Source of the DNA: an uncultured Methylibium sp.
GTDB lineage: Bacteria; Pseudomonadota; Gammaproteobacteria; Burkholderiales; Burkholderiaceae_C
DNA length: 14,592 bases
Assembly: GCA_903889735.1 (NCBI GenBank)
Contig: CAISYQ010000263.1
Span: forward strand, 1-14,592
Direction of reading: 5' to 3'
Part shown: one piece after another, positions 1 through 14,592 of the stretch
Numbering within the stretch: position 1 is the first letter of the stretch
Layout of the letters: every line of letters begins with the position of its first letter
Notes under the pieces: model-generated
What the model was told of the DNA's origin: nothing
The model's database searches: none
What the model saw: only the letters and a program-made list of their open reading frames with translations
Program-made: the position numbers and the translations under genes

Positions 1-1779
1 GCGTTGCTCGACGCTCAACACCTCCGAGAAGCCCGGCATCCCGCCCTCGGGCCGACCATGGCTCAGCCACCAAAAGATGTCGCCGGCCGTGTGCAGGGCG
101 GTGTGGGGTTCGGTCAGGTTGGCGGCCTTGCGGGGCAGGCCTGTGGCGGCCGGGCCGTCGCCTCGGCCACCCTCGCCGTGGCAGCGGGTGCAATGCTGCT
201 GGAAGAGCGCGGCGCCCTGGGCCACCGACACCGCGGTGTAGCCGGTGTCGGTGCGCCGGTAGGTGTCGGGGTAGGCCTCGCCGCTGACCATGGCCAGTCC
301 GGTGACCAGACCCGTCACCGCGACCAGACCCGCCAAGACCATGCGCCGCCGCAGGCCGCTCTCCAGGGCGGGGCTTGGAGCACCCGCCTGCCCCACGGGC
401 GGAGCCGCTTCATACGGCCGCCGCGAGAGGCGCCACAAGGCGTGCAGCAGCACGGCGGTCGCCCCCAGGGCGATCAGCGCGGCCAGCCCGACAGTGACAG
501 CGACCCCTGGCAACTCCCAGCTCGCCGCGAGCGACCACCGAAAGGGCAGCGGCCAGACCCACTGGTCGTGGGCGGCGGGCAGGGTCTCGGTCAAGCGCGC
601 CGCGAGCAGCAGGATGAGCAGCACGAGGCCAAGCTCCACGCCGAGCCAGCGGGTCATCGACCGCCAGGGGCCGGCCTCGGCGGCCGCGGGTGACACGGCA
701 GCCGGCGAGGCCGGCGAAGCGGCGGCCGGCCAGACCGCCGCAGCGGTGAGCAACGGCGTACCGTGAGACTCTGCAGATGAGGGTCTCGCCAGTTCGGCGA
801 CCGCCGAGGCCGTGCCAGCGCCTGGGCCCATGCGCGGCATCCAGACCCAGCGCGCTCGGGCGGCGATCAGGAGCACCGGGATCAAGAGCAGGACCTTGGC
901 CAGCACCAGCTGGCCGTAGTCGCTGCCCAGCAGGGGCGCCACGCTGCGCTCCAGCAGCGTGGTCAGGCCGCCGAGCAGGTCATCGGCCCGGGTGGGCCAG
1001 TCGCGGGGCGCACCCGACTGCAGGTAGGCGGTCACCGTCCCGGTCAGCACCAGCAAGACCACCGATGCGGCGGCCAAGGCCGAGAAGCGGCGCAGCAGGA
1101 CAGCGAGACTTTGGCGGAAGGCCCGCTGCAACGCGAGCGACTCCCCTGGAACGGGATGCCGGGCCAGCCACAGCGCGTACAGCAAGGCCGGCAGGCCGCC
1201 CGCCCAGAACCCCGCGGCCAGGGTGTGCAGCAACTGGCTGAGCCCCGTCAACCACAGCGGCTCGGTCGCCGCGGCATGACCAGCCAGCACGCCGGCGGCG
1301 TTGAAGGTCAGCGCCAGGGCCAGGAGCGGCGCGAGGAGACCGTCATGCCACCCGGAGCCCGGGGGTCGTGGTGGCTGTGCTCCGGTACCCGGTGGTTCTG
1401 ATCCCCGCCGGGCGCCAGGCGGTTTCCGCCCGGTCCTGCCGGCGCCAAGAAGCATCAGCAGCATCGCCAGGGCCAGCGCCTGCCGGCATTGCCAGACCAG
1501 GCCGTAGCGGGTGTCCGCCAGCAGGCGCTCCCACTCGCCCCACTGCAGCAGGGCCTCGGCGCGACCCGTGACCGACACGAGCTGCCAGCCCAGCAGGGCC
1601 GTGTGGGCCAGCAGCACCGCGCCGGTGAGCCAGGGCGCGGCCGCCATCAGCCCGCGCCGCCAGCGGGCCAGGCCCTGCGTTCGCTCGCCACCCGCGAGCG
1701 ACATCAGGGCCAGGCCGCCCAGCAAGACCAGGCCACCGGTCCCCAGCAGCCAACGCAGCGCGGTCGCGAACGCCTCCAT
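1..1779 (-). CDS. copD: CopD-family copper membrane protein fused to a C-terminal class-I cytochrome c domain (3' end beyond left edge of window)
   Basis: Not in the ORF track because there is no stop in the window. Hand translation of the minus strand from ATG 1779..1777 gives 593 stop-free codons down to nt 1. The product reads MEAFATALRWLLGTGGLVLLGGLALMSL...AGVLAGHAAATEPLWLTGLSQLLHTLAAGFWAGGLPALLYALW (CopD-like GHA / HxLAAxxWxGG helices). Further hydrophobic helices follow, then ...YTAVSVAQGAALFQQHCTRCHGEGGRGDGPAATGLPRKAANLTEPH...FWWLSHGRPEGGMPGFSEVLSVEQR. The CxxCH heme motif lies at nt 192..178 and GGMPGF supplies a candidate axial Met. The ATG abuts the copC stop (TGAATG, 1782..1777). 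Confidence 0.8.
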   Translation of the reverse strand, partial: MEAFATALRWLLGTGGLVLLGGLALMSLAGGERTQGLARWRRGLMAAAPWLTGAVLLAHTALLGWQLVSVTGRAEALLQWGEWERLLADTRYGLVWQCRQALALAMLLMLLGAGRTGRKPPGARRGSEPPGTGAQPPRPPGSGWHDGLLAPLLALALTFNAAGVLAGHAAATEPLWLTGLSQLLHTLAAGFWAGGLPALLYALWLARHPVPGESLALQRAFRQSLAVLLRRFSALAAASVVLLVLTGTVTAYLQSGAPRDWPTRADDLLGGLTTLLERSVAPLLGSDYGQLVLAKVLLLIPVLLIAARARWVWMPRMGPGAGTASAVAELARPSSAESHGTPLLTAAAVWPAAASPASPAAVSPAAAEAGPWRSMTRWLGVELGLVLLILLLAARLTETLPAAHDQWVWPLPFRWSLAASWELPGVAVTVGLAALIALGATAVLLHALWRLSRRPYEAAPPVGQAGAPSPALESGLRRRMVLAGLVAVTGLVTGLAMVSGEAYPDTYRRTDTGYTAVSVAQGAALFQQHCTRCHGEGGRGDGPAATGLPRKAANLTEPHTALHTAGDIFWWLSHGRPEGGMPGFSEVLSVEQR

Positions 1780-2298
1780 TCAGGGGCTGGGCGCGGACGC
1801 CTTCAGCGTGAAGCTGTAGCCATGGTCGACGGTGTGCCCATCGACCGACAGCACGCGGTACTTCACCATGTAGACCCCCGGCTCCAGGGCGGGGAGTTCG
1901 AGGACGAGCAGCTTGGGATCCGCCGCGTCCACCTTTGCCGCGCCGATGGCGACCGCCCCCTGGCCCTCGCGGGACAGGCTCACGGAGGCATAGGCCGGCT
2001 CCAGCTTTTCGTTGAACCAGAGCCGCAGGCGCTGCGGCGGCTTGGAGAGCGTGGCGCGCCGTGCCGGCTCGGCCTTGACCAGCGCCGCATGGGCCAGGGC
2101 TGTGCCATGGGCGGACAGCGCCAGGAGGATGGCGAAGCCGGAGGTGATCAGGGTTGAGCGGAGGCCCAAGGGGACAACCAGGCGGGCGCAACAGCGGACA
2201 CCCCAGCGGGCCGCATCGCGGAGGGTCCAGCGGACGGTCCGTTCGGCGATCCAGGGGACCGTCCAGGAGGGGCTCGATCGTGGGGTGAAGGGTGTCAT
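1780..2298 (-). CDS. copC: CopC-domain periplasmic copper-binding protein
   Basis: This is the in-frame part of track ORF 1780..2553. The mature part reads HAALVKAEPARRATLSKPPQRLRLWFNEKLEPAYASVSLSREG...GVYMVKYRVLSVDGHTVDHGYSFTLKA. That matches the CopC signature: N-terminal His after ALA|HA cleavage, LxFxExxE, Y.V.Y.V.S.DGH..G.F.F. ATG 2298..2296 overlaps the esterase stop (ATGA). It would give an unusually long 65-aa presequence. An alternative TTG at 2170..2168 would give a canonical signal peptide, MGLRSTLITSGFAILLALSAHGTALA. Confidence 0.85.
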   Translation of the reverse strand: MTPFTPRSSPSWTVPWIAERTVRWTLRDAARWGVRCCARLVVPLGLRSTLITSGFAILLALSAHGTALAHAALVKAEPARRATLSKPPQRLRLWFNEKLEPAYASVSLSREGQGAVAIGAAKVDAADPKLLVLELPALEPGVYMVKYRVLSVDGHTVDHGYSFTLKASAPSP

Positions 2299-3254
2299 GG
2301 GTCTTTCTGGGGAGATGCCGGAACGTTGGGCGGCGCGATCGGATGCGCGGTACCAGGCCGGTGCCCGGTCAGCAGGAAATCGAGCATCCGCCCCTGCAGG
2401 CCCGGCCATTCGTTGTGGCTGCGACGCCCTTCGCAGTAGAGCACCGGCGCGCCGGGCCGGCAGCCTGCGAAGGCCCTGCAACCGTCGGGGTCGGGGGTGG
2501 CTTCGGTGGCCGTCTGGGGGATCGGCTCGGTGCAGCCGTTGCAGGCCGCCCACCAGTTGGCGGCCTCACGGCCCCAGCCGGGGAAAAGCTGGTCCTGGCT
2601 GCCGTGCATGACCATCACCGGCAGGGGCGCTCGGCAGCCCATTTCCCGCAGGTCCTGGGCGTTGAAGCCGGCGGCGCTGACGGCGATCCCGGCGACGCGC
2701 TCGCGGCTCTCGGGCAGCAGGGCCAGGGCGGTGGAGACCGTGGCGCCATCGGAATGCCCGGTGAAGTAGACCTGCTGGGGGTCGATGCACCAGCGCTCGG
2801 CCACGCTCTGCGCCACGGCGCCCAGGGCAACCACGCTGCGGCGCGACATGGGCCGGTGATCGACATAGGCGACGATGAAACCGCGCCCGGTGGCCTCGGC
2901 CGTGAGTTGGGTGAAGCGCTCGCTGCGCTCGGCGCTGGCGGTGGCAGCGGCATAGACCACCAGCAGCGGATGGGCGACATCGGGGTCGAAATTCGCGGGT
3001 GTGCGCACCTGGTAGGAGAAGCGCGGATCGGTGACCGAGGCCGCGATGCCAGCCGGCGGGATCAGCGCCTGGTCGCAGGCCACTTGGCGCGGCTCGGGAT
3101 ACGCGAAGGTCCTGGCCGGTTCCACCGCGTCCGGGGGGCTGCAGGCGCCCAAAGTGGCAACCGAGAGCAGCATCGGCAGCCGGGAGCGCCACCACCCTCC
3201 CTGGCCCTGCAAGGGCCGATCAGCGCCTGGCTTTTTCCGCAGCGCGGCGGGCAC
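2295..3254 (-). CDS. Secreted lipoprotein esterase, PHB-depolymerase/LpqC-type alpha/beta hydrolase family
   Basis: Lipobox LSVATLGAC is present. The nucleophile elbow is FTGHSDGA (GxSxG). MVMHGSQDQ is a candidate acid block. The C-terminal SHNEWPG matches the GHxWPG His block of this family. Cys pairs (AACNGC, GCRAFAGC) are typical of it. The start is uncertain: GVG 3254 is not meant here, the candidates are GTG 3254 (overlaps the upstream gene by 35 nt), TTG 3212 (gives MQGQGGWWRSRLPMLLSVATLGAC, the best-looking signal peptide) or ATG 3173. Confidence 0.8.
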   Translation of the reverse strand: MPAALRKKPGADRPLQGQGGWWRSRLPMLLSVATLGACSPPDAVEPARTFAYPEPRQVACDQALIPPAGIAASVTDPRFSYQVRTPANFDPDVAHPLLVVYAAATASAERSERFTQLTAEATGRGFIVAYVDHRPMSRRSVVALGAVAQSVAERWCIDPQQVYFTGHSDGATVSTALALLPESRERVAGIAVSAAGFNAQDLREMGCRAPLPVMVMHGSQDQLFPGWGREAANWWAACNGCTEPIPQTATEATPDPDGCRAFAGCRPGAPVLYCEGRRSHNEWPGLQGRMLDFLLTGHRPGTAHPIAPPNVPASPQKDP

Positions 3255-3921
3255 GGCCCGAGGCCCCGTAGAGCAGGAAGCCGGCCACCGGCACCAGGAG
3301 CATCAGCAGGTAGCTGCCATAGGGCGTGCGGGGCTCCCCGACGCTGAACGGGAAGCGCGAAACGTACTGCTGCTTCTCGCCCGCGGACACCAGCCCGACA
3401 TAGCGGCCAGGCTGCAGGAAGTTGTGCTCGAGCGGCACGCTGCCCGCCGGGTAGAGCCTGGGCGGCAGGTGGAGCAAGGTGATGGCGTCGAGCGGTCCGG
3501 CCTCGCCGTCTCCCTTGCCAACCTCATTCCCACCGCCTGATCCGGTATCCCGGATGATCCTGACCTCGACCGGCATGGCGCGCAGCGCCTCATCGACCAT
3601 GTCCATCACCACGACGGTGGGTCCGACCTGGGGAATGTCTTCGCAGAATTCCCGGTTGCCGTTGGCCAGAGGCTGGTAGCCCGCGAAATGCATCGAGTAC
3701 GGGCCAACGGTCAGCTTGCACTGGTCTTCGTCCATGCTGAGACCGCCATGGGCGGCAGCCCCCAGGGGCAGCGCCAAGGCGGCGGTCTGCAGCACCACCC
3801 TGAGAAAGCCAGCGGCTGCGCTGCAGATCCGGTCGCCCAGGCGGTGCCGCGCCGCCTTTCGCACGAGGCTTTCGACCCGCCCTGCCCGGACCCCGCTAGG
3901 CACCGTCGTCATGCGGCTCAA
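3220..3921 (-). CDS. Secreted protein with C-terminal TM anchor, PmoD/AmoD-like by position and architecture (putative copper protein)
   Basis: Signal peptide ...LQTAALALPLGAAA|HGGLSMDEDQCKLTVGPYSMHFAGYQPLANGNREFCEDIP. A ~150-aa soluble domain follows, then one C-terminal TM helix (YGSYLLMLLVPVAGFLLYGA) and a basic tail (RARRAAEKARR). The mature N-terminus is His. Two Cys lie 25 residues apart with Met/His between them. The gene sits immediately after pmoB. The start is TTG 3921 (TTGA overlap with the pmoB stop) or ATG 3912. CDS existence ~0.8; the functional call is much weaker. Confidence 0.45.
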   Translation of the reverse strand: MSRMTTVPSGVRAGRVESLVRKAARHRLGDRICSAAAGFLRVVLQTAALALPLGAAAHGGLSMDEDQCKLTVGPYSMHFAGYQPLANGNREFCEDIPQVGPTVVVMDMVDEALRAMPVEVRIIRDTGSGGGNEVGKGDGEAGPLDAITLLHLPPRLYPAGSVPLEHNFLQPGRYVGLVSAGEKQQYVSRFPFSVGEPRTPYGSYLLMLLVPVAGFLLYGASGRARRAAEKARR

Positions 3922-5183
3922 ACGCCCGGCCCTGTCTTGAAGACCGGCACGATCGGCCCGTAGACCTCGGCGACCTGGCGCTTGCCCTCGGGATCGTAGA
4001 AGAAGATCAGTCCGCCGGTGCGGCTGTCCACGTTCGACAGGAAGCTCACCAGCCGCTCCAGCTCCCAGGCGGCGTCGGTGGCGTCGAGCTTGACGATCCG
4101 TGTCTCGCCCGGCTGCAGCGGCGCGTCAGAGCTCAGCACCAAGCCGCTGGCAGGGACCAGCTCCTTGGGGAAGGTGGGTGATACGGCCGCCATCGCGGCA
4201 TCGACCTTGCGGTTCACGAAGCGCAGGCCGGCGGTCGTGAACTCACCGATCTGCAGCGGTTGGCTCGAACGGTTGGTGAACTCCGCGGTGATCCGCATGC
4301 TGCGGCCCGGTACGTCGTACTCGGCACGCTTGAGCTGGATGTCGACCAGCTTGGGCGACTCGGGCAGCGGTGGCGTGTAGACCGAGCCGGCCTGCAGCGG
4401 CACCAACTGCGGGAAGGCCTGGACGGTCTGGCTGTAGCCGTAGATGACGATGCCCAACACCAACACGAACAGGCCTGCCGCGACCTTGTCGTCGGTGGAC
4501 GTGACCAGCAGGTCCTCGCGCCCCTTCTGCAGGGCAACCCAGCGGGGAATGATCAGCGGCCGCCGCAGCCACCACAGAAGCCAAGCCACGCCGATCAGCC
4601 CATAGCCGAATTGCCATAGCTGCACCCGGGCGACGTTGTAGGTCTGGAGATCGTCGATCACGGTGCCGTGCAGGGTGGTGACCGGTGCCTTGAAGTCGGC
4701 CTCGTCGCCGGCGACCTCGATCCAGCTGCCGGGACCGACGATGGCGCCAGCACCTTGCACGTTGAGCACCGGGTGAAGGTGCCAGCGGCCTGGCATGCGG
4801 CCCTTCATCACGATCTTGAAGTCGTAGTCGCGACCGAGCTCGAGGTCGCGGGCCGATTGCTGGGCCGGCATGTCGTTGATGTAGGACTCCACCCGGGTCA
4901 GCACCGCACCCGGCGAGCCGTTGGACAGGAACACCAGCTTGGGCTTGCTGACGGCATCCGGCCAGTCGCTGAGCAGCCGTAATTTCCCTTTCATGGTGAC
5001 CGTCTGGTTGACGTCGAGCTTGTCGGTCGACCAGCTCATGTCATACCAGTGGACGGTGCGGGTACGGATGTAGGGCTCGGTCGCCCGCTCACCATGGGCC
5101 AGTGCAGGCTCGGGCAGCACGGTGAGCAGCAGCGTCAGGAGGGCCAGCGCCCCCAGCAGGGCTTGGCGGAGGAGGCGGCTCAT
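3918..5183 (-). CDS. pmoB: Copper membrane monooxygenase subunit B (PmoB/AmoB family)
   Basis: Internal start of track ORF 3918..5702 at ATG 5183..5181, in an ATGA overlap with the pmoA stop. The product is MSRLLRQALLGALALLTLLLTVLPEPALA|HGERATEPYIRTRTVHWYDMSW...GRWHLHPVLNVQGAGAIVGPGSWIEVAG. Two central TM helices and a C-terminal cupredoxin-like half follow (EFTTAGLRF...GETRIVKLDATDAAWE...GGLIFFYDPEGKRQV). It aligns collinearly with M. capsulatus PmoB as I recall it. The 173 codons upstream in the track ORF are an out-of-frame overlap with pmoA. Confidence 0.95.
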   Translation of the reverse strand: MSRLLRQALLGALALLTLLLTVLPEPALAHGERATEPYIRTRTVHWYDMSWSTDKLDVNQTVTMKGKLRLLSDWPDAVSKPKLVFLSNGSPGAVLTRVESYINDMPAQQSARDLELGRDYDFKIVMKGRMPGRWHLHPVLNVQGAGAIVGPGSWIEVAGDEADFKAPVTTLHGTVIDDLQTYNVARVQLWQFGYGLIGVAWLLWWLRRPLIIPRWVALQKGREDLLVTSTDDKVAAGLFVLVLGIVIYGYSQTVQAFPQLVPLQAGSVYTPPLPESPKLVDIQLKRAEYDVPGRSMRITAEFTNRSSQPLQIGEFTTAGLRFVNRKVDAAMAAVSPTFPKELVPASGLVLSSDAPLQPGETRIVKLDATDAAWELERLVSFLSNVDSRTGGLIFFYDPEGKRQVAEVYGPIVPVFKTGPGV

Positions 5184-6013
5184 GGGGCCACCTCGGCCTT
5201 CGCGCTGGCTGGGGCATCGGCCTTGGCGCTGCTGCCCCCGAAGATCGCTTTGTAGCGGGCCCCGGCCGGAATGAAGCGGGTGCCGCAGGCCGCGATCGCC
5301 ATCCACCAGAACGCGATGTACACGAAGATGCAGATGAAGGCCGAGAAGAAGGCCGAGACCCAGTTGGCGGAGTCTTGGAAGGTCCGGAGCGTTCCGCGCT
5401 CGATGATGCGGATGTACTCGGGCGTGCCCGAGCGCGGGAAGGTGTAGCCGATCAGGTCGGCCAGCGAGGTCATTTGCCCCATGTGTTCGACCGGCTGGAA
5501 ATAGGGTGCGAGGTAGATCCAGTTGCTGGGAAAGAACATCAGACCGTAGACCACACCCCCGAACACCCCCGTCAGCACCCAGCTGCGGGTGAGACACAGG
5601 ATGGCGTCCAGCGCCAGCGCGCCCATCAGGCAGGTGGAGGGCAGGACCAGGCTGATCGGGAAATGCGCCATGCCCTGCCAGCTGTGGTACCGGACGATCC
5701 ACACACCGACCAGGAACAGCAGCAGGCTGGCGGTGGCGCCGATCGGCAGGCGGAACAGGTGCCAGAACAGCCCCTGGAAGGCTGCCGCCATCATCATGGT
5801 CACGATGGGCGTGATCAACACCCAGTACTGGCGGTCCTTCCAGTCGATGAAGAAGTCCCAGTCACCCGCGAACAGCAGGAAACTGATGTGGGTCACGGCC
5901 CAGACCAGGAAGGCCGCGATCACGATGATCATCAGGTCGAAGGTTCTCGACCACTTCGCCACCTGCGGGGACATCCCGGCAACGTCTAGCACCTTCTGGG
6001 AACTGGAAATCAT
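5180..6013 (-). CDS. pmoA: Copper membrane monooxygenase subunit A (PmoA/AmoA family)
   Basis: AGDWDFFIDWKDRQYWVLITPIV and RSGTPEYIRIIERGTLRTF...VSAFFSAF are hallmark PmoA/AmoA blocks. The protein has about 7 hydrophobic helices. It is 277 aa with an Ala/Lys-rich C-terminal tail (GGSSAKADAPASAKAEVAP). There is no obvious SD before ATG 6013. Confidence 0.95.
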   Translation of the reverse strand: MISSSQKVLDVAGMSPQVAKWSRTFDLMIIVIAAFLVWAVTHISFLLFAGDWDFFIDWKDRQYWVLITPIVTMMMAAAFQGLFWHLFRLPIGATASLLLFLVGVWIVRYHSWQGMAHFPISLVLPSTCLMGALALDAILCLTRSWVLTGVFGGVVYGLMFFPSNWIYLAPYFQPVEHMGQMTSLADLIGYTFPRSGTPEYIRIIERGTLRTFQDSANWVSAFFSAFICIFVYIAFWWMAIAACGTRFIPAGARYKAIFGGSSAKADAPASAKAEVAP

Positions 6014-6046
6014 CGGATGCGCTTCAAAGGATTCTTGTGAAGGGGA

Positions 6047-6838
6047 TCACTCAGCGGCGGCTGGCATGGCGGCATCGACCTGTTTGAACAGCTCGGCCAT
6101 GCGCATCAGCACTTGCAGCAACACGCCGCCCAGCGCCAGACCGGTCCAGCCCAGGATGGGGAAGCCCCAGTGCAGCGGGTGGCTGAAGATCTCCTCGGTC
6201 AACCAGAAGGCGTGGCCCCACTCGTTGTAGCCGAGGTTGGGCAGGATCAGCCCTGGGCCGAGCACGGCCATGATCAGCGGCACCGAGAAGGAGTCGGCAA
6301 AGCGCGGGATGCGCGTCATCGCGTAGAGCATGGTGCTGACCCCGAGCACGATGTAGAGCGGCACGCAGGCATAGAACAGCACGATGTGGCTGGGCGTCAG
6401 TGCCGTGTCGCGGATCACCGTCTGGTGCCAGGTGGCATCACCCTCACCGTAGAAGCTGGCCACCCACAGGAAGGAGAAGGTGTAGACGATGAACCAGGCG
6501 ACCAGGTTGAAGTGCCGACGCAGCTCGGTCTCGGGCGACAGGCGGTCCATGTGCTTGTCCCGGCTCATCCACAGGTAGAGCCACATCACGATGCCGGTGC
6601 CGAAGATCAGCGGCACCTCCAGCTTGAAGAGCGTCACCCAGTGGGTCGCGAATTCCGGCGTGGTGGAGTCCAGGCCGTACTTGAAGGCGAAGGCCTGCTG
6701 GTAGAAGCGCAGCCCCACATAGATGGCCATCAGCACGCCCCAACCGATCGCCACCGGGGCGACGTTGAACATCTTGCGTTCCTTGGGGGCGACCGCTGCG
6801 CGGGGCAGCAGGTTTGGGGAAGCCGCTTGGGTCAGCAT
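6047..6838 (-). CDS. pmoC: Copper membrane monooxygenase subunit C (PmoC/AmoC family)
   Basis: FYGEGDATWHQTVIRDTALTPSHIVLFY and LPNLGYNEWGHAFWLTEEIFSHPLHWGF are hallmark PmoC blocks. I chose ATG 6838..6836 (M29 of track ORF 6047..6922). It is preceded by the SD AGGAGA (revcomp of 6845..6850) at 6-nt spacing. The upstream 28 codons look non-coding. Confidence 0.95.
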   Translation of the reverse strand: MLTQAASPNLLPRAAVAPKERKMFNVAPVAIGWGVLMAIYVGLRFYQQAFAFKYGLDSTTPEFATHWVTLFKLEVPLIFGTGIVMWLYLWMSRDKHMDRLSPETELRRHFNLVAWFIVYTFSFLWVASFYGEGDATWHQTVIRDTALTPSHIVLFYACVPLYIVLGVSTMLYAMTRIPRFADSFSVPLIMAVLGPGLILPNLGYNEWGHAFWLTEEIFSHPLHWGFPILGWTGLALGGVLLQVLMRMAELFKQVDAAMPAAAE

Positions 6839-7100
6839 GGTCGTTCTCCTGAGTGACGATGAGGAACAGATCGGGGTCGTGGGGGGATCGTCAGCACAGG
6901 CGATGACGACTCCCAAAACCAATGCCCTTCAACAACGACCGCCAACAAGGGCGAGGCGTTGCCAAGGCGATCCACAGTGTTGCACAGCAACCGCACCCGG
7001 AGAACGGGTATTCACCCCCATAGATGCCGACCGAGGGTGGGCACCCTCCCCTACCCGCCGCCTGAAGACGGGGTTCCGCACACCCGCTGTCAGGCGGGTG
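6839..7100 (-). promoter_or_regulatory. pmoC promoter plus structured 5' leader (exact promoter not identified)
   Basis: 262-nt non-coding gap, less GC-rich than the flanks, ending in a strong SD. Several short inverted repeats are present. TGACGAT (6854..6860), ATCGTCA (6887..6893) and TGACGA (6904..6909) could form alternative hairpins. Others are GTTGC-ACA-GCAAC (6979..6991), ACCCG-GAGAA-CGGGT (6995..7009) and GAGGGT-GGGC-ACCCTC (7033..7048). I found no convincing -35/-10 pair by eye. Confidence 0.4.
7081..7100 (-). terminator. Stem-loop directly after the thioesterase-GNAT stop; weak candidate terminator or insulator
   Basis: CACCCGC-tgtcag-GCGGGTG forms a 7-bp GC-rich stem with a 6-nt loop. 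It abuts the stop codon at 7103..7101. No U-tract follows on the minus strand (…GCGGGUG UGCGGAACCCC), so it is not a canonical intrinsic terminator. Confidence 0.25.
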
Positions 7101-7964
7101 TCAAAGCGTCTGCGCCATGGCCTGGTGCGGCAGACCGGCCTCCTGGAACGCCGCCCCGATCGCTGCAAAGCCGTGCCGGGCGTAGAAGCCCACGGCCGAG
7201 GCCTGGGCGTGGAGCACCACCTCGCGGTCCTCACGAGCGCGGGCGGCGGTCAGCAAGGCGTCGAGCACCGCCCTGCCCGCCCCGGCGCCACGCAGCAGGG
7301 AGCAGGTCGCCATGCGGCCGACCTTGGAGACCCCAGACCTGACCGCCACCAGCCTCCCGCAGGCCAGAGGCAGGCCCAGGCGGTTGAAGGCCACGGCATG
7401 CACCGCTCCGGCGTCGGCATCGTCCGTGAGCAGGTCGGCGGCGATGCCCTGCTCCACCACGAACACCTCCTGCCGGATCGCAGTCGATGCGCCGGCCCAC
7501 TCGGACCAAGCCCCGACGCTCACCTCGAGCATGGGCTCGCCCGCCTCGAAGCCCAGGAGCAGTGCGCGCAGCCCGGCAGGCACAGGCTGGGGCGTCTGGG
7601 CCGTGGCGTCGGCGAATACGTAGACCAACTCGCCACTGACCAGCAGACGCTCCTGCCGGAAGACGGCGCCGCGCAGGAGGATGGAGCTGTTGCCGATCCG
7701 CTCGCAGCGCACGCCGATCTCCAACGTCTCGTCGAAGCGCGCCGAGGCGTGGTACTCGAGCGTGGCCTTGCGCACGAAGAGGTCGCCGCCGAAATGCTGC
7801 AGCGTGGCCTCATAGGGCAGCGCCATCGCCCGCCACCAGCCCGCCACGGCGGTGTCCAGGTACATCAGGTAATGACCGTTGAAGACGATGCGCTGCAGGT
7901 CAACCTCGGCCCAGCGCACACGCAGCCTCTCGAGGTGGCGGAAATGGCCTCGCTCCAGATCCAT
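7101..7964 (-). CDS. Fusion protein: N-terminal YbgC/4HBT-type hotdog acyl-CoA thioesterase plus C-terminal GNAT N-acetyltransferase
   Basis: ATG 7964..7962 is preceded by AAGGAGG (revcomp of 7972..7978) at 7-nt spacing. The track ORF extends to 8078 but that part looks non-coding. The N-terminal half reads LRVRWAEVDLQRIVFNGHYLMYLDTAVAGWW...IGNSSILL (4HBT/YbgC pattern with the Asp). The C-terminal half reads IRQEVFVVEQG...AVHAVAF...GRLV...KVGRMATCSLLRGAGAGRAVLDALL...LHAQASAVGFYARHGF (GNAT motif A, R/Q-x-x-G-x-G/A). Confidence 0.85.
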   Translation of the reverse strand: MDLERGHFRHLERLRVRWAEVDLQRIVFNGHYLMYLDTAVAGWWRAMALPYEATLQHFGGDLFVRKATLEYHASARFDETLEIGVRCERIGNSSILLRGAVFRQERLLVSGELVYVFADATAQTPQPVPAGLRALLLGFEAGEPMLEVSVGAWSEWAGASTAIRQEVFVVEQGIAADLLTDDADAGAVHAVAFNRLGLPLACGRLVAVRSGVSKVGRMATCSLLRGAGAGRAVLDALLTAARAREDREVVLHAQASAVGFYARHGFAAIGAAFQEAGLPHQAMAQTL

Positions 7965-8076
7965 GGCTCGCCCTCCTTTGGCAGCTTGGGGTGGCGCCGG
8001 CAACGTGGCGCGCCGGCTGGGGGCAAGCATACTGGCGCTCCATCCCTCCGCAACCTGCCTCCGAAGCCCGCCCACC
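7965..8076. promoter_or_regulatory. Divergent intergenic region between the thioesterase-GNAT gene and the alcohol dehydrogenase gene
   Basis: 112-nt gap between divergently oriented starts. It contains a near-direct repeat, GTGGCGCCGGC (7991..8001) and GTGGCGCGCCGGC (8006..8018), and a CATACT -10-like hexamer (8028..8033). No clear -35 element and no SD precede ATG 8077. Confidence 0.25.
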
Positions 8077-9213
8077 ATGCCGCAGATTTTCTACATTACC
8101 CAGATCCAGTTCGATTTCGGCGCGGTCCGCGAGCTGGCGGCCGAGTGCGCGCGCGTCGGCATCCACCGCCCGCTTGTCATCACCGACGCCGGCGTGCGGG
8201 CCGCGGGCGTGCTGCAGCCGGCGCTCAAAGCCCTGCGCGAACTGCCGGTGGCGGTGTTTGACGGTACGCCCTCCAACCCCACCGAGGCGGCCGTGCGCGC
8301 TGCCCGGGCGGTCTGGGACGCCCACCGCGCCGACGGCCTGGTGGCGGTGGGTGGCGGCTCCAGCATCGATCTCGCCAAGGCCCTGGCGATCCATGCCACC
8401 CACCCCGGGCCGCTCAAGACCTACGCCACCATCGAGGGCGGCTCCACCCTCATCACCGCGGCGGTCGCCCCGCTGATCGCCGTGCCCACCACCGCCGGGA
8501 CCGGCAGCGAGGTGGCGCGCGGCGCCATCCTCATCGTCGATGACGGCCGCAAGCTGGGATTCCACAGCTGGCACCTGGTGCCGCGCGCGGCCATCTGCGA
8601 TCCAGAACTCACGCTCGGCCTGCCCGCCGGCCTGACGGCGGCCACTGGCATGGATGCGGTGGCCCACTGCATGGAGACCTTTCTCTCGGCCGCCTTCAAC
8701 CCGCCCGCCGACGGCATCGCACTCGATGGCCTGGCCCGAGCCTGGACACACATCGAGCGCGCCACCCGCGACGGCAGCGACCGCGAGGCGCGTCGCCAGA
8801 TGATGAGCGCCTCCATGCAGGGCGCGATGGCCTTCCAGAAAGGCCTGGGCTGCGTGCACAGCCTCAGCCACAGCCTGGGCGGCGTGAACCCGCGCCTGCA
8901 CCACGGCACGCTCAACGCGATGTTCCTGCCGGCGGTGCTGCGTTTCAACGCGCAGGCCGAGAGCGTGCGGGCCGAGAAACGCCTGGAACGCATGGCGCAG
9001 GCCATGGGCCTGGCCTCGGCCGGCGATGTGGCCGTCGCGGTGGCCGACATGAACGCACGCCTGGGCCTGCCCACGGGCTTGGCCGCCCTGGGGGTGGCAC
9101 AGAACGCTTTCGACCACATCGTCGCAGGCGCACTGGCCGATCACTGCCACAAGACCAATCCGCGTGTCGCGGGTGCCGACGACTACCGACAGATGCTGAC
9201 CGAGGCGCTATGA
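8077..9213 (+). CDS. Iron-containing (family III) NAD(P)-dependent alcohol dehydrogenase, 4-hydroxybutyrate-dehydrogenase-like
   Basis: M67 of track ORF 7879..9213. The product starts MPQIFYITQIQFDFGAVRELAAEC. Other blocks are FDGTPSNPTE, VAVGGGSSIDLAKA (GGGSxxDxAK), PLIAVPTTAGTGSEV, and the metal His blocks MDAVAHCMETF and CVHSLSHSLGG...LHHG. The whole length resembles the Cupriavidus Gbd-type enzyme as I recall it. Confidence 0.9.
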   Translation: MPQIFYITQIQFDFGAVRELAAECARVGIHRPLVITDAGVRAAGVLQPALKALRELPVAVFDGTPSNPTEAAVRAARAVWDAHRADGLVAVGGGSSIDLAKALAIHATHPGPLKTYATIEGGSTLITAAVAPLIAVPTTAGTGSEVARGAILIVDDGRKLGFHSWHLVPRAAICDPELTLGLPAGLTAATGMDAVAHCMETFLSAAFNPPADGIALDGLARAWTHIERATRDGSDREARRQMMSASMQGAMAFQKGLGCVHSLSHSLGGVNPRLHHGTLNAMFLPAVLRFNAQAESVRAEKRLERMAQAMGLASAGDVAVAVADMNARLGLPTGLAALGVAQNAFDHIVAGALADHCHKTNPRVAGADDYRQMLTEAL

Positions 9214-9297: not shown

Positions 9298-10092
9298 ATG
9301 GCCTTCACTCATCTCGCATCCAGATCGGTCCGGACCGCGCTTGTGGCGCTTGCCGGCCTCCTGTCGGTTGCGGCGGCCTCGGCCCAGGAAAACAGCCTGC
9401 TGATCTACTGCGGCATCACCATGGTGAGGCCGATCACCGAGCTGGCGCGCAGTTTCGAGCAGCAGGAAAAGATCAAGATCGACATCTCCCAGGGGGGCTC
9501 CGAAGACCTCTACCGGAGCGTGCGCAAGAGCCGCACGGGCGACCTCTACCTCCCCGGGGAGCCCTCCTACCGCAGCAAGTACCTTGCCGAGGGCCTGCTG
9601 GGCGACGTCAAGGTGGTCGGCTACAACCAGATGGCGATCTTCGTGCCCAAGGGCAACCCGAAGAAGGTGCAGCCCGACCTGAAGGAACTGCTGCGCAAGG
9701 ACCTGGTCCTGACGATCGGCAATGCCGAGAGCGGCAGCGTTGGCCAGGAATCCAAGGCCATACTCGACCGCGCCAACCTGTATCCCAAGGTCGTCTCGCA
9801 GGCCGCCTTCCTGATGCCCGATTCGAGGGCCATCAACCTCGCCCTCAAGCGCGGCGATGCGGATGCGGCGTTGAACTGGCGCGCCACCGCCTTTTTCCCT
9901 GACAACGCCCCCCAGATCGATGTGGTGGATCTCGATCCCCGCATCGCCAAGCCGCAGGCGCTGCTGCTCAACCTGCTCACTTTCTCTCGCAACCCCACAC
10001 TGGCCGCCAAGTTCATGGCCTATGCCGCCTCCGGCGAGGGCCAGGCGGTGTTCCGCAAGTACGGCTTCCTGGACAACAGCCAGGTCCGCTGA
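9298..10092 (+). CDS. Periplasmic type-II substrate-binding protein, ModA/oxyanion-binding-like fold (probable sensor co-receptor)
   Basis: SD AAGGA (9286..9290). Signal peptide MAFTHLASRSVRTALVALAGLLSVAAASA|QE. The pattern LLIYCGITMVRPITELARSFEQQEKIKIDISQGGSEDLYRSV...GDLYLPG resembles ModA-type binding proteins (ModA has AAASL...SFGSSG...DVFISA). However, the canonical anion-binding Ser positions are changed. No ABC permease or ATPase gene follows; a sensor kinase does. Confidence 0.8.
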   Translation: MAFTHLASRSVRTALVALAGLLSVAAASAQENSLLIYCGITMVRPITELARSFEQQEKIKIDISQGGSEDLYRSVRKSRTGDLYLPGEPSYRSKYLAEGLLGDVKVVGYNQMAIFVPKGNPKKVQPDLKELLRKDLVLTIGNAESGSVGQESKAILDRANLYPKVVSQAAFLMPDSRAINLALKRGDADAALNWRATAFFPDNAPQIDVVDLDPRIAKPQALLLNLLTFSRNPTLAAKFMAYAASGEGQAVFRKYGFLDNSQVR

Positions 10093-10107: not shown

Positions 10108-12420
10108 GTGCACCGCCCGATCGAGACCGCGACCGCCTCGGGCAAGGCCGGACTGGCCCTGCTCGGCCTGTTCCTGGCGGGTTTCTCGGCCATCGTCGGT
10201 GTCAGCGTGGTGATCTCCAGCCTGATCGCGGACCTGGACCGCCAGAGCGCCAACGAGCGCGCGCGGCTGGTCGTCGGTGAGGAGATCGTGACCACGGTGC
10301 ACCAGATCGAACGGCTGTTCTACCAGCTGCCTCAGCTCACGAGCGAGGCCAGCCGAGCGCGACCGCTCAAGCAGATCGCCGAGGCCACGCAACACATCGA
10401 CGATGCCCTGGCCGTGCTCCAGCGCGGAGGCCGGCTGCAGCGGCGGGTGGCGCTCAATGTCTATGGCCTCGACGAGATGGTCAGCGAGGTGATCTACCGA
10501 CCCTCGGGCGACGCGGAGAAGGTCGTGCTGGAGGTCATCGAGATCGCGCCGCATGCGGACCAGATCAGGGAGCGCATGGTGGTGCTGCAAGACCTGCTCC
10601 AGGCCCGCGATGCCTGCGCCGACGCCGATCTGGCCTGCCGGCAGTCGGTGGGCGAGCGCCTGAGTGTCTACTTCAAGGTCACGCCGGCATTCTTCTTTCG
10701 CCTCGGCGAAAACGCCAACCGCCTGCTGTTCGAGAGCAACAAGCTGCTGACCGATCTGGAGCAGCGGCTGGCCGAGCAGCAACGCAACCTGCGCCGCACC
10801 CAGCTCGGCGTGGTGATCCTGGTGGTGTTCTCGGTCATGGGGCTGAGCGGCTTTTTCCTGCGCCGCATCAACGCCGCACATGGCCAGATGCAGAGGGCCA
10901 TGGAACAGGCCGAGGCAGCCAACCGGGCGAAGTCAGAGTTCCTCGCCAACATGAGCCATGAGATCCGCACGCCGATGAACGCCATCCTGGGCTTCGCGCA
11001 GCTCATGCAGGAATCCGAGCTCCCCAAGCGCCAGCGCGCCCATCTTGACAGCGTGCAGAGAGCGGCTCGCGCGTTGCTGCGCATCCTCAACGACATCCTT
11101 GACTACTCCAAGATCGAGGCCGGCCGCCTGGATCTGGAGGTGGCGCCCTTCGACCTGCCCGAGCTGCTGGCCGGCGTGGAGGACCTGTTCTCCTTCCAGG
11201 TCTCGGACAAGGGGTTGCGGCTCGAGGTCCGCATCGATCCCACGCTGCCAAGTGCCCTGCTCGGCGACGCCACGCGCCTGCGGCAGGTGCTCGTCAATTT
11301 GGTGGGCAATGCGCTGAAGTTCACCGAATCCGGCGGCATCCGGGTCGACATCGAGCGCGGCCCGCAGGAGGGTGCCGACCTGGCGCTGGCGGTGGCCGTG
11401 CAGGACACCGGCATCGGCATGAGCGCCGAGCAGCTGGCCCGCATCTTCTCGGCCTTCTCCCAGGCCGACACCTCGATCACGCGGCGCTTTGGCGGCACCG
11501 GGCTGGGGCTCTCGATCTCCAGCCAGTTGGTTGCCCTGATGGGGGGCCAGCTCTCGGCGGACAGCCAGCCGGGCCGGGGGTCGACCTTCCGCTTCACGGT
11601 CCGGGTGGGCATCGCACCCCACGGCGGACAGGCCGCGCCGGCATCGGCGACGCCCGCCCAGGACGGCAGCGCCTGCCTGGCGCAGGCAGCGCGCCTGAAG
11701 GGCGCCAAGGCCTTGCTGGTGGAGGACATGGAGGCCAACCGCATGCTCCTGACGGCCCTGCTCGAGGGACTGGGCATGGCGGTCACCTCCGCGGTCAACG
11801 GCCGCGAGGCGGTGGAGCGCTGCGCCAGCGAGCGCTTCGACGTCATCCTGATGGATCTGCAGATGCCCGAGATGGACGGCTTTGAGGCCACCCGCCGCAT
11901 CCGGGCCGATCACCCGCAGGACGCGCCACCGGTGATCGCGGTATCGGCCTCGGCCCTGCTGCGCGACCGCCAGGCCTGCCTGGCCGCGGGGATGGTCGAC
12001 CATGTGGCCAAACCCATCGAGCGGGATCGCTTGCTTGCCTCCTTGCTGCAGTGGATTCCGGTGACCGCGGTGGCTGTCGATCCAGGTCCCGCGGCAGAGG
12101 ATGGTGCGCAGGGGGGGGCATCCGCTGACGCAGGCTCCCCGGCCTCACAGCTCGGGGGCCGGGCGCCGATACCGCCGGCGGGACGCGGTACCGACAAGCC
12201 GCTCGACCGGGCCGCGCTCGATCCGCTCCTGGCCGAGCTCGGACCGCTGTTGCAGAACAACCTCATGACGGCCCGACGGGTCGTCGAATCCATCGAGACC
12301 CTGGTCGAGGACACTGCGGTGTCTGGCGCCTTCCAGCCGGTGTCCGACGCCACGGGCAAGCTGCGGTTCAAGGACGCCCTGGCTGCCCTGGCCAGGTTCC
12401 GGGCCGACATGGCCCTCTGA
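10108..12420 (+). CDS. Membrane hybrid sensor histidine kinase (TM - ~190-aa periplasmic helical domain - TM - HisKA - HATPase_c - REC - His-less C-terminal helical tail)
   Basis: GTG start lies 15 nt after the SBP stop. TM1 is GLALLGLFLAGFSAIVGVSVVISSLI. TM2 is LGVVILVVFSVMGLSGFFL. H-box is [15 protein letters not shown] (H284, nt 10957..10959). N/G boxes are VNLVGNALKFT, DTGIGM, GGTGLGLSIS. The REC acceptor is ILMDLQMPEMDG (D583, nt 11854..11856), with KPI present. The last ~80 aa contain no His, so this is not a functional Hpt. Confidence 0.9.
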   Translation: MHRPIETATASGKAGLALLGLFLAGFSAIVGVSVVISSLIADLDRQSANERARLVVGEEIVTTVHQIERLFYQLPQLTSEASRARPLKQIAEATQHIDDALAVLQRGGRLQRRVALNVYGLDEMVSEVIYRPSGDAEKVVLEVIEIAPHADQIRERMVVLQDLLQARDACADADLACRQSVGERLSVYFKVTPAFFFRLGENANRLLFESNKLLTDLEQRLAEQQRNLRRTQLGVVILVVFSVMGLSGFFLRRINAAHGQMQRAMEQAEAANRAKSEFLANMSHEIRTPMNAILGFAQLMQESELPKRQRAHLDSVQRAARALLRILNDILDYSKIEAGRLDLEVAPFDLPELLAGVEDLFSFQVSDKGLRLEVRIDPTLPSALLGDATRLRQVLVNLVGNALKFTESGGIRVDIERGPQEGADLALAVAVQDTGIGMSAEQLARIFSAFSQADTSITRRFGGTGLGLSISSQLVALMGGQLSADSQPGRGSTFRFTVRVGIAPHGGQAAPASATPAQDGSACLAQAARLKGAKALLVEDMEANRMLLTALLEGLGMAVTSAVNGREAVERCASERFDVILMDLQMPEMDGFEATRRIRADHPQDAPPVIAVSASALLRDRQACLAAGMVDHVAKPIERDRLLASLLQWIPVTAVAVDPGPAAEDGAQGGASADAGSPASQLGGRAPIPPAGRGTDKPLDRAALDPLLAELGPLLQNNLMTARRVVESIETLVEDTAVSGAFQPVSDATGKLRFKDALAALARFRADMAL

Positions 12421-12432
12421 AGCCTCACCCCC

Positions 12433-14592
12433 ATGCGAAGCCCACCCCTCGTCTTCATCGTCGACGATGTGCCCGACAACATCGCCGTGCTCGGCGAGAC
12501 CCTCGCACCAACCTGCGACGTGCAGTTCGCCACCTCCGGTGCCGAGGGCCTGGCGCTGATCGCCACCAGCCTGCCCGACCTGATCCTGCTCGACGTCATG
12601 ATGCCGGTGATGGACGGCTACCAGGTCTGTGCCGCGCTCAAGAGCAATCCGCTCACCCGGTCGATCCCGGTGATCTTCGTCACCGCCAAGAGCGACCCGG
12701 AGAGCGAGTCAGAGGCGCTGGCCGCGGGCGCCGTCGATTTCGTCCACAAGCCCATCAACCAGCAGGTCGTCAGGGCGCGCGTTCGAATGCAGCTGGATCT
12801 GCAGCAGCAGGCGGCCGATCTGCGCGGTCTCAACGCCGCGCTGGAGCAGAAGGTCGCGCAGCGCACCCAGGCCCTGAGCGAGGCCCTGCAGCATGCCGAG
12901 GACGCTTCGCGGGCCAAATCGGAGTTCCTCGCCAACGTCTCCCACGAGATCCGCACGCCAATGAACGCCATCATCGGCCTGGCCCACCTCACCCTCCAGA
13001 CCGACCTGAACCCGCGGCAGCGCGACTACCTGGGCCGGATCCAGGATTCCGGCCACCACCTGTTGGGCATCATCAACGACATCCTCGACCTCTCCAAGAT
13101 GCAGGCCGGCAAGATGCAGGTGGAGAGCGTGACCTTCCGGCTGGCGCAGGTGCTGGACAACGTCGTGGCCCAGGTGGCTGCGACGGCCGCGCACAAAGGC
13201 CTCGAGCTGCTGCTGAGCCTCGCCCCCGACCTGCCCTCCCAGCTGATGGGCGACCCACTCCGTCTCGGCCAGATCCTGATCAACCTGGCCAACAACGCGG
13301 TCAAGTTCACCGACCACGGCGAGGTGACGCTGCGGGTGGCCCGCGTCACCACCCCTGCCGACGATGAGGCCACCGGCACCGCGGGCAGCGGCAGCCTGCG
13401 GCTGGCGTTCTCGGTCAGCGACACGGGCATCGGGCTGACGCCAGAGCAATGCGGTCGGCTCTTCCGTGATTTCGAGCAGGCCGACACCTCCACCACCCGG
13501 CGCTATGGTGGCACCGGCCTGGGCCTTGCGATCACCGCCCGACTCGCGGCGCTGATGGGTGGTGAGGTCGGGGTGCAGAGCGAACCGGGCGTCGGCTCGA
13601 CCTTCTCGTTCTCGGCCTGGTTCGGTGCCCAGCCCATGGCAAGCGCCGCCGCCCCGGCCTTGCCGCCGGAATTGGCGGGCCGGCGCCTGCTGGTGACCGA
13701 CGACCACGCCGGCGCGCGCGCCGCCGCGGTGGAGATGCTGAACTCGCTGGGCTTCGCCGCTGCGGGGGTGTCCAGCGGGGCCGAGGCGCTGGCCGAGATC
13801 GCGCAGGCCGCTGTCGAGGGCCGACCCTATGCGGCTGTGGTCATCGACAGCCTGATGCCCGGCATGGACGGCATCACCACGGCCAGGGAACTGCGCCGCC
13901 TGCCGCTGGTGCAGCCCCCCGTCCTGCTGACCACCCTCTATGACGAGGAGGCCTTGGGCGACCCGGTGTTGTCCGCGACCATTGACGCGGTCCTGGCCAA
14001 GCCGCTCACCCCGGATGCGCTGGCCCGGGCTCTGCGCCGCCTGTTTCAGGCGGGCGATCGCGAAGCCCCTGCCAGGAACCCGCGCCCGCTCCAGGGGGAG
14101 GGGCTGCCGAGCCGCTTGAAAGGCGCACGCCTGCTGCTGGTCGAGGACAACGAGGTCAACCAGATGGTGGCCGCGGGCATGCTGCGCCTGGAGGGTTTCG
14201 TGGTCGATGTCGTCGGCAACGGCGCCGAGGCGCTCGAGCAGGTCGTGCAGAACGACTATGACGCGGTCCTGATGGACGTGCAGATGCCGGTGATGGACGG
14301 CCTGGAGGCCACCCGGGCGATCCGGCGGCTCTCCAAGGGCCTGCGGCTGCCCATCATCGCGCTCACGGCCAACGCCATGCTAGAAGACCGGCAGGTCTGT
14401 CTGGACGCCGGCATGAATGACTATGTGAGCAAGCCCATCGCACCCGATGCGCTGGCGCAGGTCCTGGGGCGTTGGCTCGAACCGCGGCCTGGAACGACGG
14501 TCAACGGCAGCGCAGTGTCCGCCTGCCTGCGGGAGATCGAGACCCTGCTCTCGGGCGGAGACATCCGCGTGCTCGACGTGATCGACGCCAAC
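12433..14592 (+). CDS. Soluble hybrid histidine kinase: REC - coiled coil - HisKA - HATPase_c - REC - REC - (3' end beyond right edge)
   Basis: Not in the ORF track because it has no stop. ATG 12433 opens 720 stop-free codons to the window end. The product starts [22 protein letters not shown]...[13 protein letters not shown] (D54). The coiled coil is [30 protein letters not shown]-box is [15 protein letters not shown] (H171). ATP-binding boxes are [30 protein letters not shown]2 is [12 protein letters not shown] (D472). REC3 is [12 protein letters not shown] (D615). No TM segment is present. Confidence 0.9.

Follow-up and report, generated by a model that had tools for sequence, protein, structure and literature searches.

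A seven-gene copper membrane monooxygenase cluster from an uncultured Methylibium sp., with a proposed copper-supply set, a lipoprotein esterase and a probable small-hydrocarbon substrate

The contig CAISYQ010000263.1 of an uncultured Methylibium sp., a complete public metagenome contig of 14,592 bp analysed here at its full length (the window; G+C about 70%), carries seven co-oriented genes on its minus strand, running from position 6838 down to position 1. These are xmoC, xmoA and xmoB, which encode a copper membrane monooxygenase (CuMMO), followed by a gene for an AmoD/PmoD homolog (D), an esterase gene, copC and a CopD-cytochrome c gene. We put a probability of roughly 0.7 on the joint reading that this is an intact, conserved cluster, expressed as one transcription unit, and that it would encode a small-hydrocarbon CuMMO together with a copper-supply set and a periplasmic esterase. 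How CuMMOs obtain their copper and electrons is still an open question, for particulate methane monooxygenase (pMMO) and ammonia monooxygenase (AMO) as for their hydrocarbon-oxidising kin, and active expression of these enzymes is hard; in this cluster and its relatives the accessory genes form a compact and conserved set that is open to direct testing. Two of its components are not discussed in the literature searched: the periplasmic lipoprotein esterase, and a CopD that carries a c-type cytochrome and a cysteine-free thioredoxin fold in the same chain.

The monooxygenase genes lie in the order C-A-B on the minus strand, and the scores of their products are all far above the Pfam gathering scores: xmoC at 6047..6838 (263 aa; AmoC, E = 3e-85), xmoA at 5180..6013 (277 aa; AMO, E = 1e-77) and xmoB at 3918..5183 (421 aa with a signal peptide; Monooxygenase_B, E = 1e-137). 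In an alignment to the PmoC chain of PDB 4PHZ, XmoC keeps the ligand positions of both the CuC (D..H..H) and the CuD (N..H..H) site. In XmoB, the N-terminal His that follows the signal peptide (ALA|HGE) and a WHxH motif align to His33, His137 and His139, the CuB ligands of Methylococcus capsulatus PmoB (3RGB). The predicted XmoCAB is a membrane copper monooxygenase with its ligand positions intact. Its best XmoA relatives are a metagenome sequence at 92% identity and one from a Burkholderiaceae metagenome-assembled genome (MAG) at 82%.

An earlier note on this DNA had described a translationally coupled seven-gene operon; the gene identities, order, orientation and tight spacing that it gave agree with our reading of the sequence and with the profile matches, and every one of its junction coordinates is found in the sequence. 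Translation of xmoC would begin at ATG 6838, with AGGAG 7 nt ahead, and end at the stop 6049..6047; a 33-nt gap leads to xmoA, which starts at ATG 6013. Apart from that gap, the junctions read in the sequence are 4-nt overlaps or 0-7-nt gaps. xmoA and xmoB share an ATGA at 5183..5180, the xmoB stop lies within a TTGA at 3921..3918 with an in-frame ATG (3912..3910) 5 nt past it, the esterase stop overlaps ATG 2298 as an ATGA (2298..2295), and copC meets copD in a TGAATG (1782..1777). Gene calls in relatives show the same overlapping or abutting junctions (0-4 nt) for xmoA/xmoB, D/esterase and copC/copD. All seven frames have a G+C of 0.84-0.91 at third codon positions (GC3), compared with 0.67 in the spacer upstream of xmoC, which marks them as real genes rather than the shadow open reading frames (ORFs) common in high-GC DNA. 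This 262-nt leader (6839..7100, minus strand), between the stop of a thioesterase-GNAT gene (7101) and the xmoC ATG at 6838, is non-coding, with a flat G+C per codon position (0.61/0.62/0.67), and is the presumed promoter region. Spacing and conservation make co-transcription of the seven genes plausible, as a single unit that would start in the leader. Translational coupling across them is also plausible: all the proposed coupled junctions are present, but two of the six hang on uncertain start codons, those of the esterase and CopC.

Does the same set accompany related enzymes? Synteny was surveyed by tblastn over 25 genome loci, together with loci fetched by exact protein look-up. Relatives with XmoA at 63-82% identity occur in Burkholderiaceae, Sterolibacterium, Rhodoferax, Acidovorax, Vitreoscilla, Extensimonas soli, Bradyrhizobium and Nevskiales, the last including Solimonas aquatica. 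xmoCAB-D is present in nearly all 25 genome loci, with D behind xmoB almost everywhere, and the esterase gene lies no more than 4.5 kb from xmoB in 16 of 16 independent alpha- and betaproteobacterial loci with enough sequence (L001, L002, L004, L005, L006, L008, L009, L013, L015, L018, L026, L027, L028, L037, L038 and L039). Its placement varies between CAB-D-est, CAB-est-D and CAB-D-copC-copD-...-est (est, esterase). Seven loci (L002, L013, L015, L018, L031, L037 and L038) hold both copC and the CopD-cytochrome gene, and in L039 the contig breaks off within the first codons of the gene after copC. Esterase and copC genes are adjacent in the window and its strain variants, have one small gene between them in L031 and L039, and lie about 6.7 kb apart in L037 and L038, where the genes in between encode an aldehyde dehydrogenase, an acyl-CoA synthetase, a methyltransferase and an acetyl-CoA hydrolase/transferase. 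A similar but shorter insert, with the aldehyde dehydrogenase and acetyl-CoA hydrolase/transferase genes, is found in a Rhodoferax ferrireducens contig (L002; XmoA 71% identical), which has the order CAB-D-esterase-aldehyde dehydrogenase-CoA transferase-small ORF-copC-CopD::cyt::Trx (cyt, cytochrome c; Trx, thioredoxin-like domain). The Rugosibacter locus L031, at only 42% XmoA identity, reads CAB-D-est-EthD-copC-CopD::cyt::Trx, and the esterase is also found in L032. Since so distant a locus has the same set, the accessory set accompanies more than one enzyme lineage.

Though its order and insertions vary, the gene set is kept next to related CuMMO genes in Burkholderiales-, Sterolibacterium/Rugosibacter-type and Bradyrhizobium genomes. 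The earlier note had named a lack of conserved copCD and esterase synteny as what would refute it, and the survey found the opposite, with the esterase, copC and CopD-cytochrome genes adjoining related alpha- and betaproteobacterial CuMMO operons. Conservation of the accessory set holds within the alpha- and betaproteobacteria but is not universal, as eight Nevskiales loci and one Burkholderiales MAG have xmoCAB-D only. Could the esterase, copC and copD genes be mere neighbours, independent units with no functional tie to an operon that consists of xmoCAB-D? Their order does vary among relatives, with up to about 6.7 kb of other genes between esterase and copC, CopCD genes are common across bacteria, and about 125 nt may separate the esterase from copC, depending on the CopC start. 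Yet despite rearrangement the genes are found together again and again, in Burkholderiales, Rhodocyclales-like MAGs and Bradyrhizobium, all on one strand and with conserved 0-4-nt D/esterase and copC/copD junctions, and a terminator scan found no terminator-like site at any junction inside the cluster, so that mere adjacency appears very unlikely.

Some of the surveyed loci have features of their own. Rugosibacter L031 carries two extra PmoD-family paralogs upstream of xmoC (4680-5922), and its small EthD-like gene between esterase and copC lies at 10945-11268. About 2.8 kb downstream of xmoCAB-D, a Hyphomicrobiales MAG (L024, 5761-6723) has two fragments that resemble the N- and C-terminal cupredoxin parts of XmoB; these could be a membrane-less PmoB-like paralog or a pseudogene.

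The D gene (3220..3921, minus strand) abuts xmoB and encodes 230-233 aa, from TTG 3921 or ATG 3912; GC3 of its N-terminal stretch is 0.87. The protein has no Pfam match and aligns to PmoD of PDB 6CPD with E = 7e-19 (phmmer). A signal peptide, the family's two Cys, a C-terminal transmembrane (TM) helix, YLLMLLVPVAGFLLYG, and the xmoCAB neighbours place it in the PmoD/AmoD cupredoxin family. The two Cys lie in the motif HGGLSMDEDQC-x8-MH...EFC. This arrangement, Cx8MH...C, is of the AmoD type and distinct from the Cx7MxHxnC of CuA-forming PmoD, only the Cx7MxH form having been shown to form CuA (Fisher 2018, PMC6189053). Several relatives have L, I or V in place of the Met of the motif. In nearly all relatives, mature D is predicted to begin with a conserved His (A|HGGLS[MI]D; window 3735-3760, minus strand). 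Because mature XmoB and CopC also have an N-terminal His, this residue suggests an amino-terminal copper site in D.

The next copper-related gene, copC (1780..2298, minus strand), encodes 172 aa from ATG 2298 or 129 aa from TTG 2169. Its product matches Pfam CopC (PF04234) with E = 3e-20 and 73.6 bits against a threshold of 23.3, and scores 79.5 against the NCBIfam copper_CopC equivalog, below the cut-off of 95. The predicted mature protein begins with His (ALA|HAAL), carries a D-G-H motif (SVDGH) and has one Met only, which points to a CopC of the Cu(II)-site type. Directly upstream of copC, six relatives encode a conserved protein of 161-169 aa that has a signal peptide and is rich in His at its N-terminus (e.g. 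ADHSHHESGHADM), at 9836-10321 in L002, 13758-14267 in L008, 13799-14305 in L018, 16953-17438 in L037, 16988-17470 in L038 and 11165-11656 in L039; no Pfam family matches it, and the window lacks it.

The last gene of the cluster (1..1779, minus strand) is cut by the contig end after its first 593 codons. It scores 44 bits against Pfam CopD (PF05425; threshold 32.1) and 66.6 against the NCBIfam CopD equivalog (cut-off 195), and has a Pfam Cytochrom_C domain in which the CxxCH motif is CTRCH. Pfam therefore confirms both domains of the CopD::cytochrome c fusion that had been proposed, but the gene is incomplete in the window, and the full form has a thioredoxin-like domain as well. A second contig, L040 (1-5930), is 97.8% identical to the window and gap-free over 4,979 nt (window 1..4979) and reaches 950 nt further, completing a protein of 826 aa that ends ...PPPDDHVH and adds a cysteine-free thioredoxin fold. 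Homologs of 640-704 aa are built from CopD, then two further TM helices and a domain like cytochrome c552, with a thioredoxin fold at the C-terminus; in an AlphaFold2 (AF2) model the C-terminal domain resembles ResA/TlpA/AhpE, and it has no Cys and ends in a conserved DDHVH. Three of its His, H646, H700 and H702 (P0251 numbering), are nearly invariant and would be candidate copper ligands. The window holds the first two domains of this three-domain family, the third being known from L040 and the homologs; the family is uncharacterised, and databases label its members 'c-type cytochrome' or 'CopD family protein'. As the roughly 250 nt past the L040 stop show no obvious further same-strand gene, seven is probably the full gene count of the cluster. 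A small protein follows the CopD-cytochrome gene in three loci (L015 8932-9444, L031 13755-14294 and L032 5825-6295), with a signal peptide, a His-rich tail (KGHHEHH in L015) and no Pfam match.

What would a haem domain do on CopD? CopC is described as a Cu(II) binder and CopD as a putative importer (PMC8689200). Three-domain CopD proteins also occur with no CuMMO nearby, beside CusF and rhodanese genes in two Methylomirabilota-type contigs and beside CopC and DUF2946 in a third contig, and for this reason the haem domain probably serves the function of CopD itself, in the simplest reading as a built-in cupric reductase step. The occurrence of this protein away from CuMMO favours copper handling over electron supply to the enzyme. 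The earlier idea of a self-contained module for enzyme, copper and possibly electrons has accordingly shifted: copper supply gains from a three-domain CopD beside CusF or CopC, and electron supply loses weight. In the relay that we propose, CopC would capture periplasmic Cu(II), the CopD-tethered c-type haem domain would reduce it, CopD would move Cu(I) across or along the membrane, and the AmoD-type cupredoxin together with the Cys-free thioredoxin-fold domain would pass copper, or perhaps electrons, to the enzyme.

By analogy with cytochrome c and CuA in cytochrome oxidase, the cytochrome c domain and the AmoD-type cupredoxin might instead form the physiological electron donor chain to the CuMMO. 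The cluster does combine a membrane-tethered CxxCH haem domain, similar to soluble cytochrome c552, with a PmoD-family cupredoxin, and delivery of reducing equivalents is among the possible roles of PmoD (Fisher 2018, PMC6189053). The CuMMO-free copies of CopD-cytochrome c-thioredoxin fold argue that the role of the haem is intrinsic to the CopD protein, however, and no CopD-cytochrome gene lies within about 8.7 kb downstream of xmoCAB-D in the Nevskiales and Bradyrhizobium loci; in L012 alone, copC and a weak, partial match to CopD precede the end of the contig. A path of electrons through D to the monooxygenase is less likely than a CopD-intrinsic role of the haem, because the D motif is Cx8MH and not the CuA-forming Cx7MxH and its Met is not conserved. 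We regard the electron donor chain as improbable, and retain copper supply as the proposed role of the CopD fusion.

The remaining accessory gene (2295..3212, minus strand; 292-319 aa by the start chosen) encodes a lipoprotein serine esterase of the alpha/beta hydrolase type. The lipobox Cys is kept in every homolog examined, and the G-H-S-D-G elbow, D207, H266 and 8 further Cys are invariant across 45 sequences. Its AF2 model (predicted local distance difference test, pLDDT, 85) is an alpha/beta hydrolase whose nearest folds are feruloyl esterase 8JH8, acetyl-xylan esterase and polyhydroxybutyrate (PHB) depolymerase. Scores against the PHB-depolymerase/esterase models are far below cut-off (NF050058, 47.5 versus 150; TIGR01840, 23 versus 107.85) and the Pfam match is weak and below threshold, so that the protein falls outside the PHB depolymerase family by curated cut-off, although its fold and catalytic triad are of the same superfamily. 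Sequence and model together indicate that it is most likely active, disulfide-bonded and tethered to the membrane on the periplasmic side. A metagenome scan with the esterase returned one locus, L036, with only 164 nt of upstream sequence.

Our preferred guess is that the esterase would hydrolyse an ester that arises in the periplasmic oxidation pathway, whether as an intermediate or as a by-product; in many loci its gene directly precedes aldehyde dehydrogenase and acyl-CoA synthetase genes. A CuMMO-specific accessory factor, acting for instance on a lipid or ester for assembly, stability or repair of the enzyme and not in carbon metabolism, would account for its staying with D, copC and copD in loci that are free of carbon-metabolism genes from xmoB to the CopD-cytochrome gene (the window, L031 and L039), for its presence with two CuMMO lineages only 42% identical in XmoA, and for its predicted anchoring as a periplasmic lipoprotein on the same side as the soluble domains of CuMMO. 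Besides the carbon-metabolism genes next to it in many loci, three points make such a factor doubtful: the esterase is absent from eight Nevskiales loci with 63-70% identical XmoA, homologs in Nitrospira lie among lipid-synthesis genes, and a literature search, which did not cover the text of Rochman et al. 2020, found no paper tying an esterase to CuMMO. A hydrolytic step in the oxidation pathway stays our preferred guess. The Nitrospira homologs were also considered as a link to comammox amo clusters, which was rejected at the one locus examined on account of the lipid-synthesis neighbours.

The genomic context bears on the substrate as well. Clusters of relatives hold genes for aldehyde dehydrogenase, AMP-binding acyl-CoA synthetase, acetyl-CoA hydrolase/transferase and a MimR-like regulator, and in the window an iron-containing alcohol dehydrogenase gene (8077-9213, plus strand) lies 1.2 kb upstream of xmoC. 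Neither hydroxylamine dehydrogenase nor cytochrome c554/cM552 genes were found in the 14.6-kb contig. The xmoCABD clusters of Rhodoferax and Polaromonas have reportedly been tied to ethane and propane use. The neighbouring alcohol and aldehyde dehydrogenase, acyl-CoA synthetase and CoA-transferase genes, along with published listings of Rhodoferax, Polaromonas, Solimonas and Bradyrhizobium CuMMOs as non-methane, non-ammonia or of unknown function (PMC8630023, PMC6215863), suggest that the natural substrate is most likely a small hydrocarbon, a C2-C4 alkane or related compound, rather than ammonia or methane.

Might the enzyme be a true AMO all the same, in an unrecognised or heterotrophic nitrifier? 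Profile scores are divided on this point. XmoB passes NCBIfam AmoB_BACT (537 bits, cut-off 336) and XmoC passes AmoC_BACT (328 bits, cut-off 319), but XmoA remains under the cut-off of AmoA_BACT (273.7 versus 290), leaving the bacterial AMO equivalogs matched by two of the three subunits, and solved pMMO chains match XmoA and XmoB about as well as solved AMO chains do. The AmoD-type motif of D and a gene order that mirrors amoCAB(E)D-copCD would suit an AMO. The neighbours, however, are genes of alcohol, aldehyde and acyl-CoA metabolism and not of hydroxylamine oxidation, and the relatives belong to heterotrophic genera whose CuMMOs are listed as non-ammonia or of unknown function, which together render ammonia oxidation highly improbable. 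Since XmoB and XmoC exceed the NCBI AMO equivalog thresholds, automated annotation would probably call them AMO, and metagenome surveys can miscount such genes as markers of nitrification, although the context speaks for hydrocarbon oxidation.

A number of observations weigh against the joint reading of a co-transcribed, self-supplied hydrocarbon monooxygenase. Scores above the AmoB and AmoC equivalog cut-offs are, by sequence, compatible with ammonia oxidation. Eight Nevskiales loci, at 63-70% XmoA identity, and one Burkholderiales MAG have xmoCAB-D only; because the Nevskiales loci lack the esterase, and most of them copCD nearby, neither is obligatory for the enzyme lineage. In Nitrospira MAGs (L029/L030, 10001-10873) a lipoprotein esterase 49% identical to that of the window, within the 45-50% range of the Nitrospira homologs, is encoded between CDP-alcohol phosphatidyltransferase and PlsY-like genes and not near amo, which argues that the wider esterase family is not CuMMO-specific. 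Two start codons are ambiguous. For the esterase, GTG 3254, TTG 3212 and ATG 3173 are candidates; the gene callers took 3173, which leaves 10 residues ahead of the lipobox Cys, and TTG 3212 is favoured because relatives have about 20-24 such residues and their gene calls begin at or over the D stop. For CopC, whose length in relatives is 121-149 aa, the gene callers disagree between ATG 2298, 69 residues before the signal cleavage site, and TTG 2169. The latter would leave a spacer of about 125 nt past the esterase, where relatives hold inserted genes, and given this ambiguity the ATGA at 2298 may not be a genuine coupling site. Finally, each step of the copper relay is a proposal, and promoter scans gave no start point for the unit: no sigma-70-like promoter or terminator-like site was found in the 262-nt leader or at gene junctions, and the sigma-54 pattern matched 29 times against 28.5 expected, never in the leader.

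A search of the window against Rfam found no RNA family. The earlier note had singled out a hairpin after the stop of the PmoD-like gene as a structured element. The inverted repeat (GGCCCT-nnn-AGGGCC, 6 bp, 3203..3217) can be read in the sequence, where it overlaps the candidate esterase start TTG 3212 and may sit in the esterase coding region, but it lacks a T-run and its fold does not stand out from shuffled sequence (z = -0.06; 86 of 200 shuffles fold at least as well), and was rejected as a regulatory element. A stem-loop past the stop of the upstream gene is likewise not significant (z = -0.8).

That upstream gene (7101-8078, minus strand; likely start ATG 7964) encodes a 4HBT thioesterase-GNAT acetyltransferase fusion. 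The same fusion precedes xmoC in the contig with 92%-identical XmoA, and more distant relatives have a divergent MimR-like regulator in its place. Divergent from the thioesterase gene, on the plus strand, lie the alcohol dehydrogenase gene, a gene for a molybdate-type periplasmic binding protein (SBP_bac_11; 9298-10092) and two for hybrid sensor histidine kinases (10108-12420, and 12421-14592, which runs off the contig). These four genes could form a sensing system for the cluster.

A more far-reaching idea, which we consider unlikely, is that D, esterase, CopC and CopD::cytochrome c::thioredoxin-like protein make up a portable CuMMO activation cassette that moves between lineages as far apart as 42% XmoA identity. 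Such a cassette would supply what the core subunits lack, namely reduced copper, possibly electrons through a haem-to-cupredoxin path, and an enzyme-specific hydrolase step, and its co-expression could be the missing piece for active heterologous expression of CuMMOs.

Known counterparts exist for the individual accessory proteins. PHB-depolymerase and CE1 esterases (8JH8, 9J07, 8DAJ) share the alpha/beta fold, G-x-S-x-G, the Ser-Asp-His triad and an extracytoplasmic, disulfide-rich build with the window esterase; identity to it is only 14-23%, and the window protein is lipid-anchored and encoded in CuMMO clusters. Among CopC/CopD copper uptake pairs, E. coli YobA-YebZ (PMC8689200) and the B. 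subtilis YcnJ fusion resemble the window in joining a CopC with N-terminal His and a D-x-H Cu(II) site to a CopD membrane protein directly after it. A canonical CopD has about 300 aa (the NCBIfam model has 295 positions), whereas the full form of the window protein, at 826 aa, has haem c and thioredoxin-like domains added.

For the cluster as a whole, the closest published layouts are the extended pmo/amo operons, which are amoCAB-amoE-amoD-copC-copD in betaproteobacterial ammonia oxidisers and pmoCAB-pmoD-copC-copD-PCuAC in the alphaproteobacterial methanotrophs Methylosinus and Methylocystis (Fisher 2018, PMC6189053). The likeness to amoCAB-orf4/orf5-copCD that had been pointed out earlier is borne out by these orders and by the AmoD-type Cx8MH...C of D: the window has the same C-A-B order, then a PmoD-family cupredoxin, CopC and CopD on one strand, and its D protein shares the motif, signal peptide and C-terminal TM helix of AmoD. 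Differences are equally clear. Unlike the betaproteobacterial ammonia oxidisers, the window has a single D gene and not an amoE-amoD pair; unlike Methylosinus and Methylocystis, it has no PCuAC gene in the cluster. In contrast to both, a lipoprotein esterase stands between D and copC, CopD gains two TM helices, a cytochrome c and a Cys-free thioredoxin fold (any cytochrome domain in the CopD of ammonia- and methane-oxidising bacteria lies outside this comparison), and the host belongs neither to a methanotroph lineage nor to one of known nitrifiers. The xmoCABD clusters of Rhodoferax and Polaromonas (Rochman et al. 2020, ISME J 14:714, as cited in PMC8630023 and PMC9213486) likewise combine a CuMMO with a D gene in non-nitrifying, non-methanotrophic Betaproteobacteria; compared with Rhodoferax L002 the window is compact and without the aldehyde dehydrogenase and CoA-transferase insert. 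A literature search for xmoCAB/xmoD with copC/copD, which did not extend to the text of Rochman et al. 2020, found nothing relevant. Two components of this layout, the conserved lipoprotein esterase and the protein that joins CopD, cytochrome c and a thioredoxin fold, are uncharacterised; the layout itself is a variation on the extended pmo/amoCAB-D-copCD operon, and its CuMMO lineage was known before.

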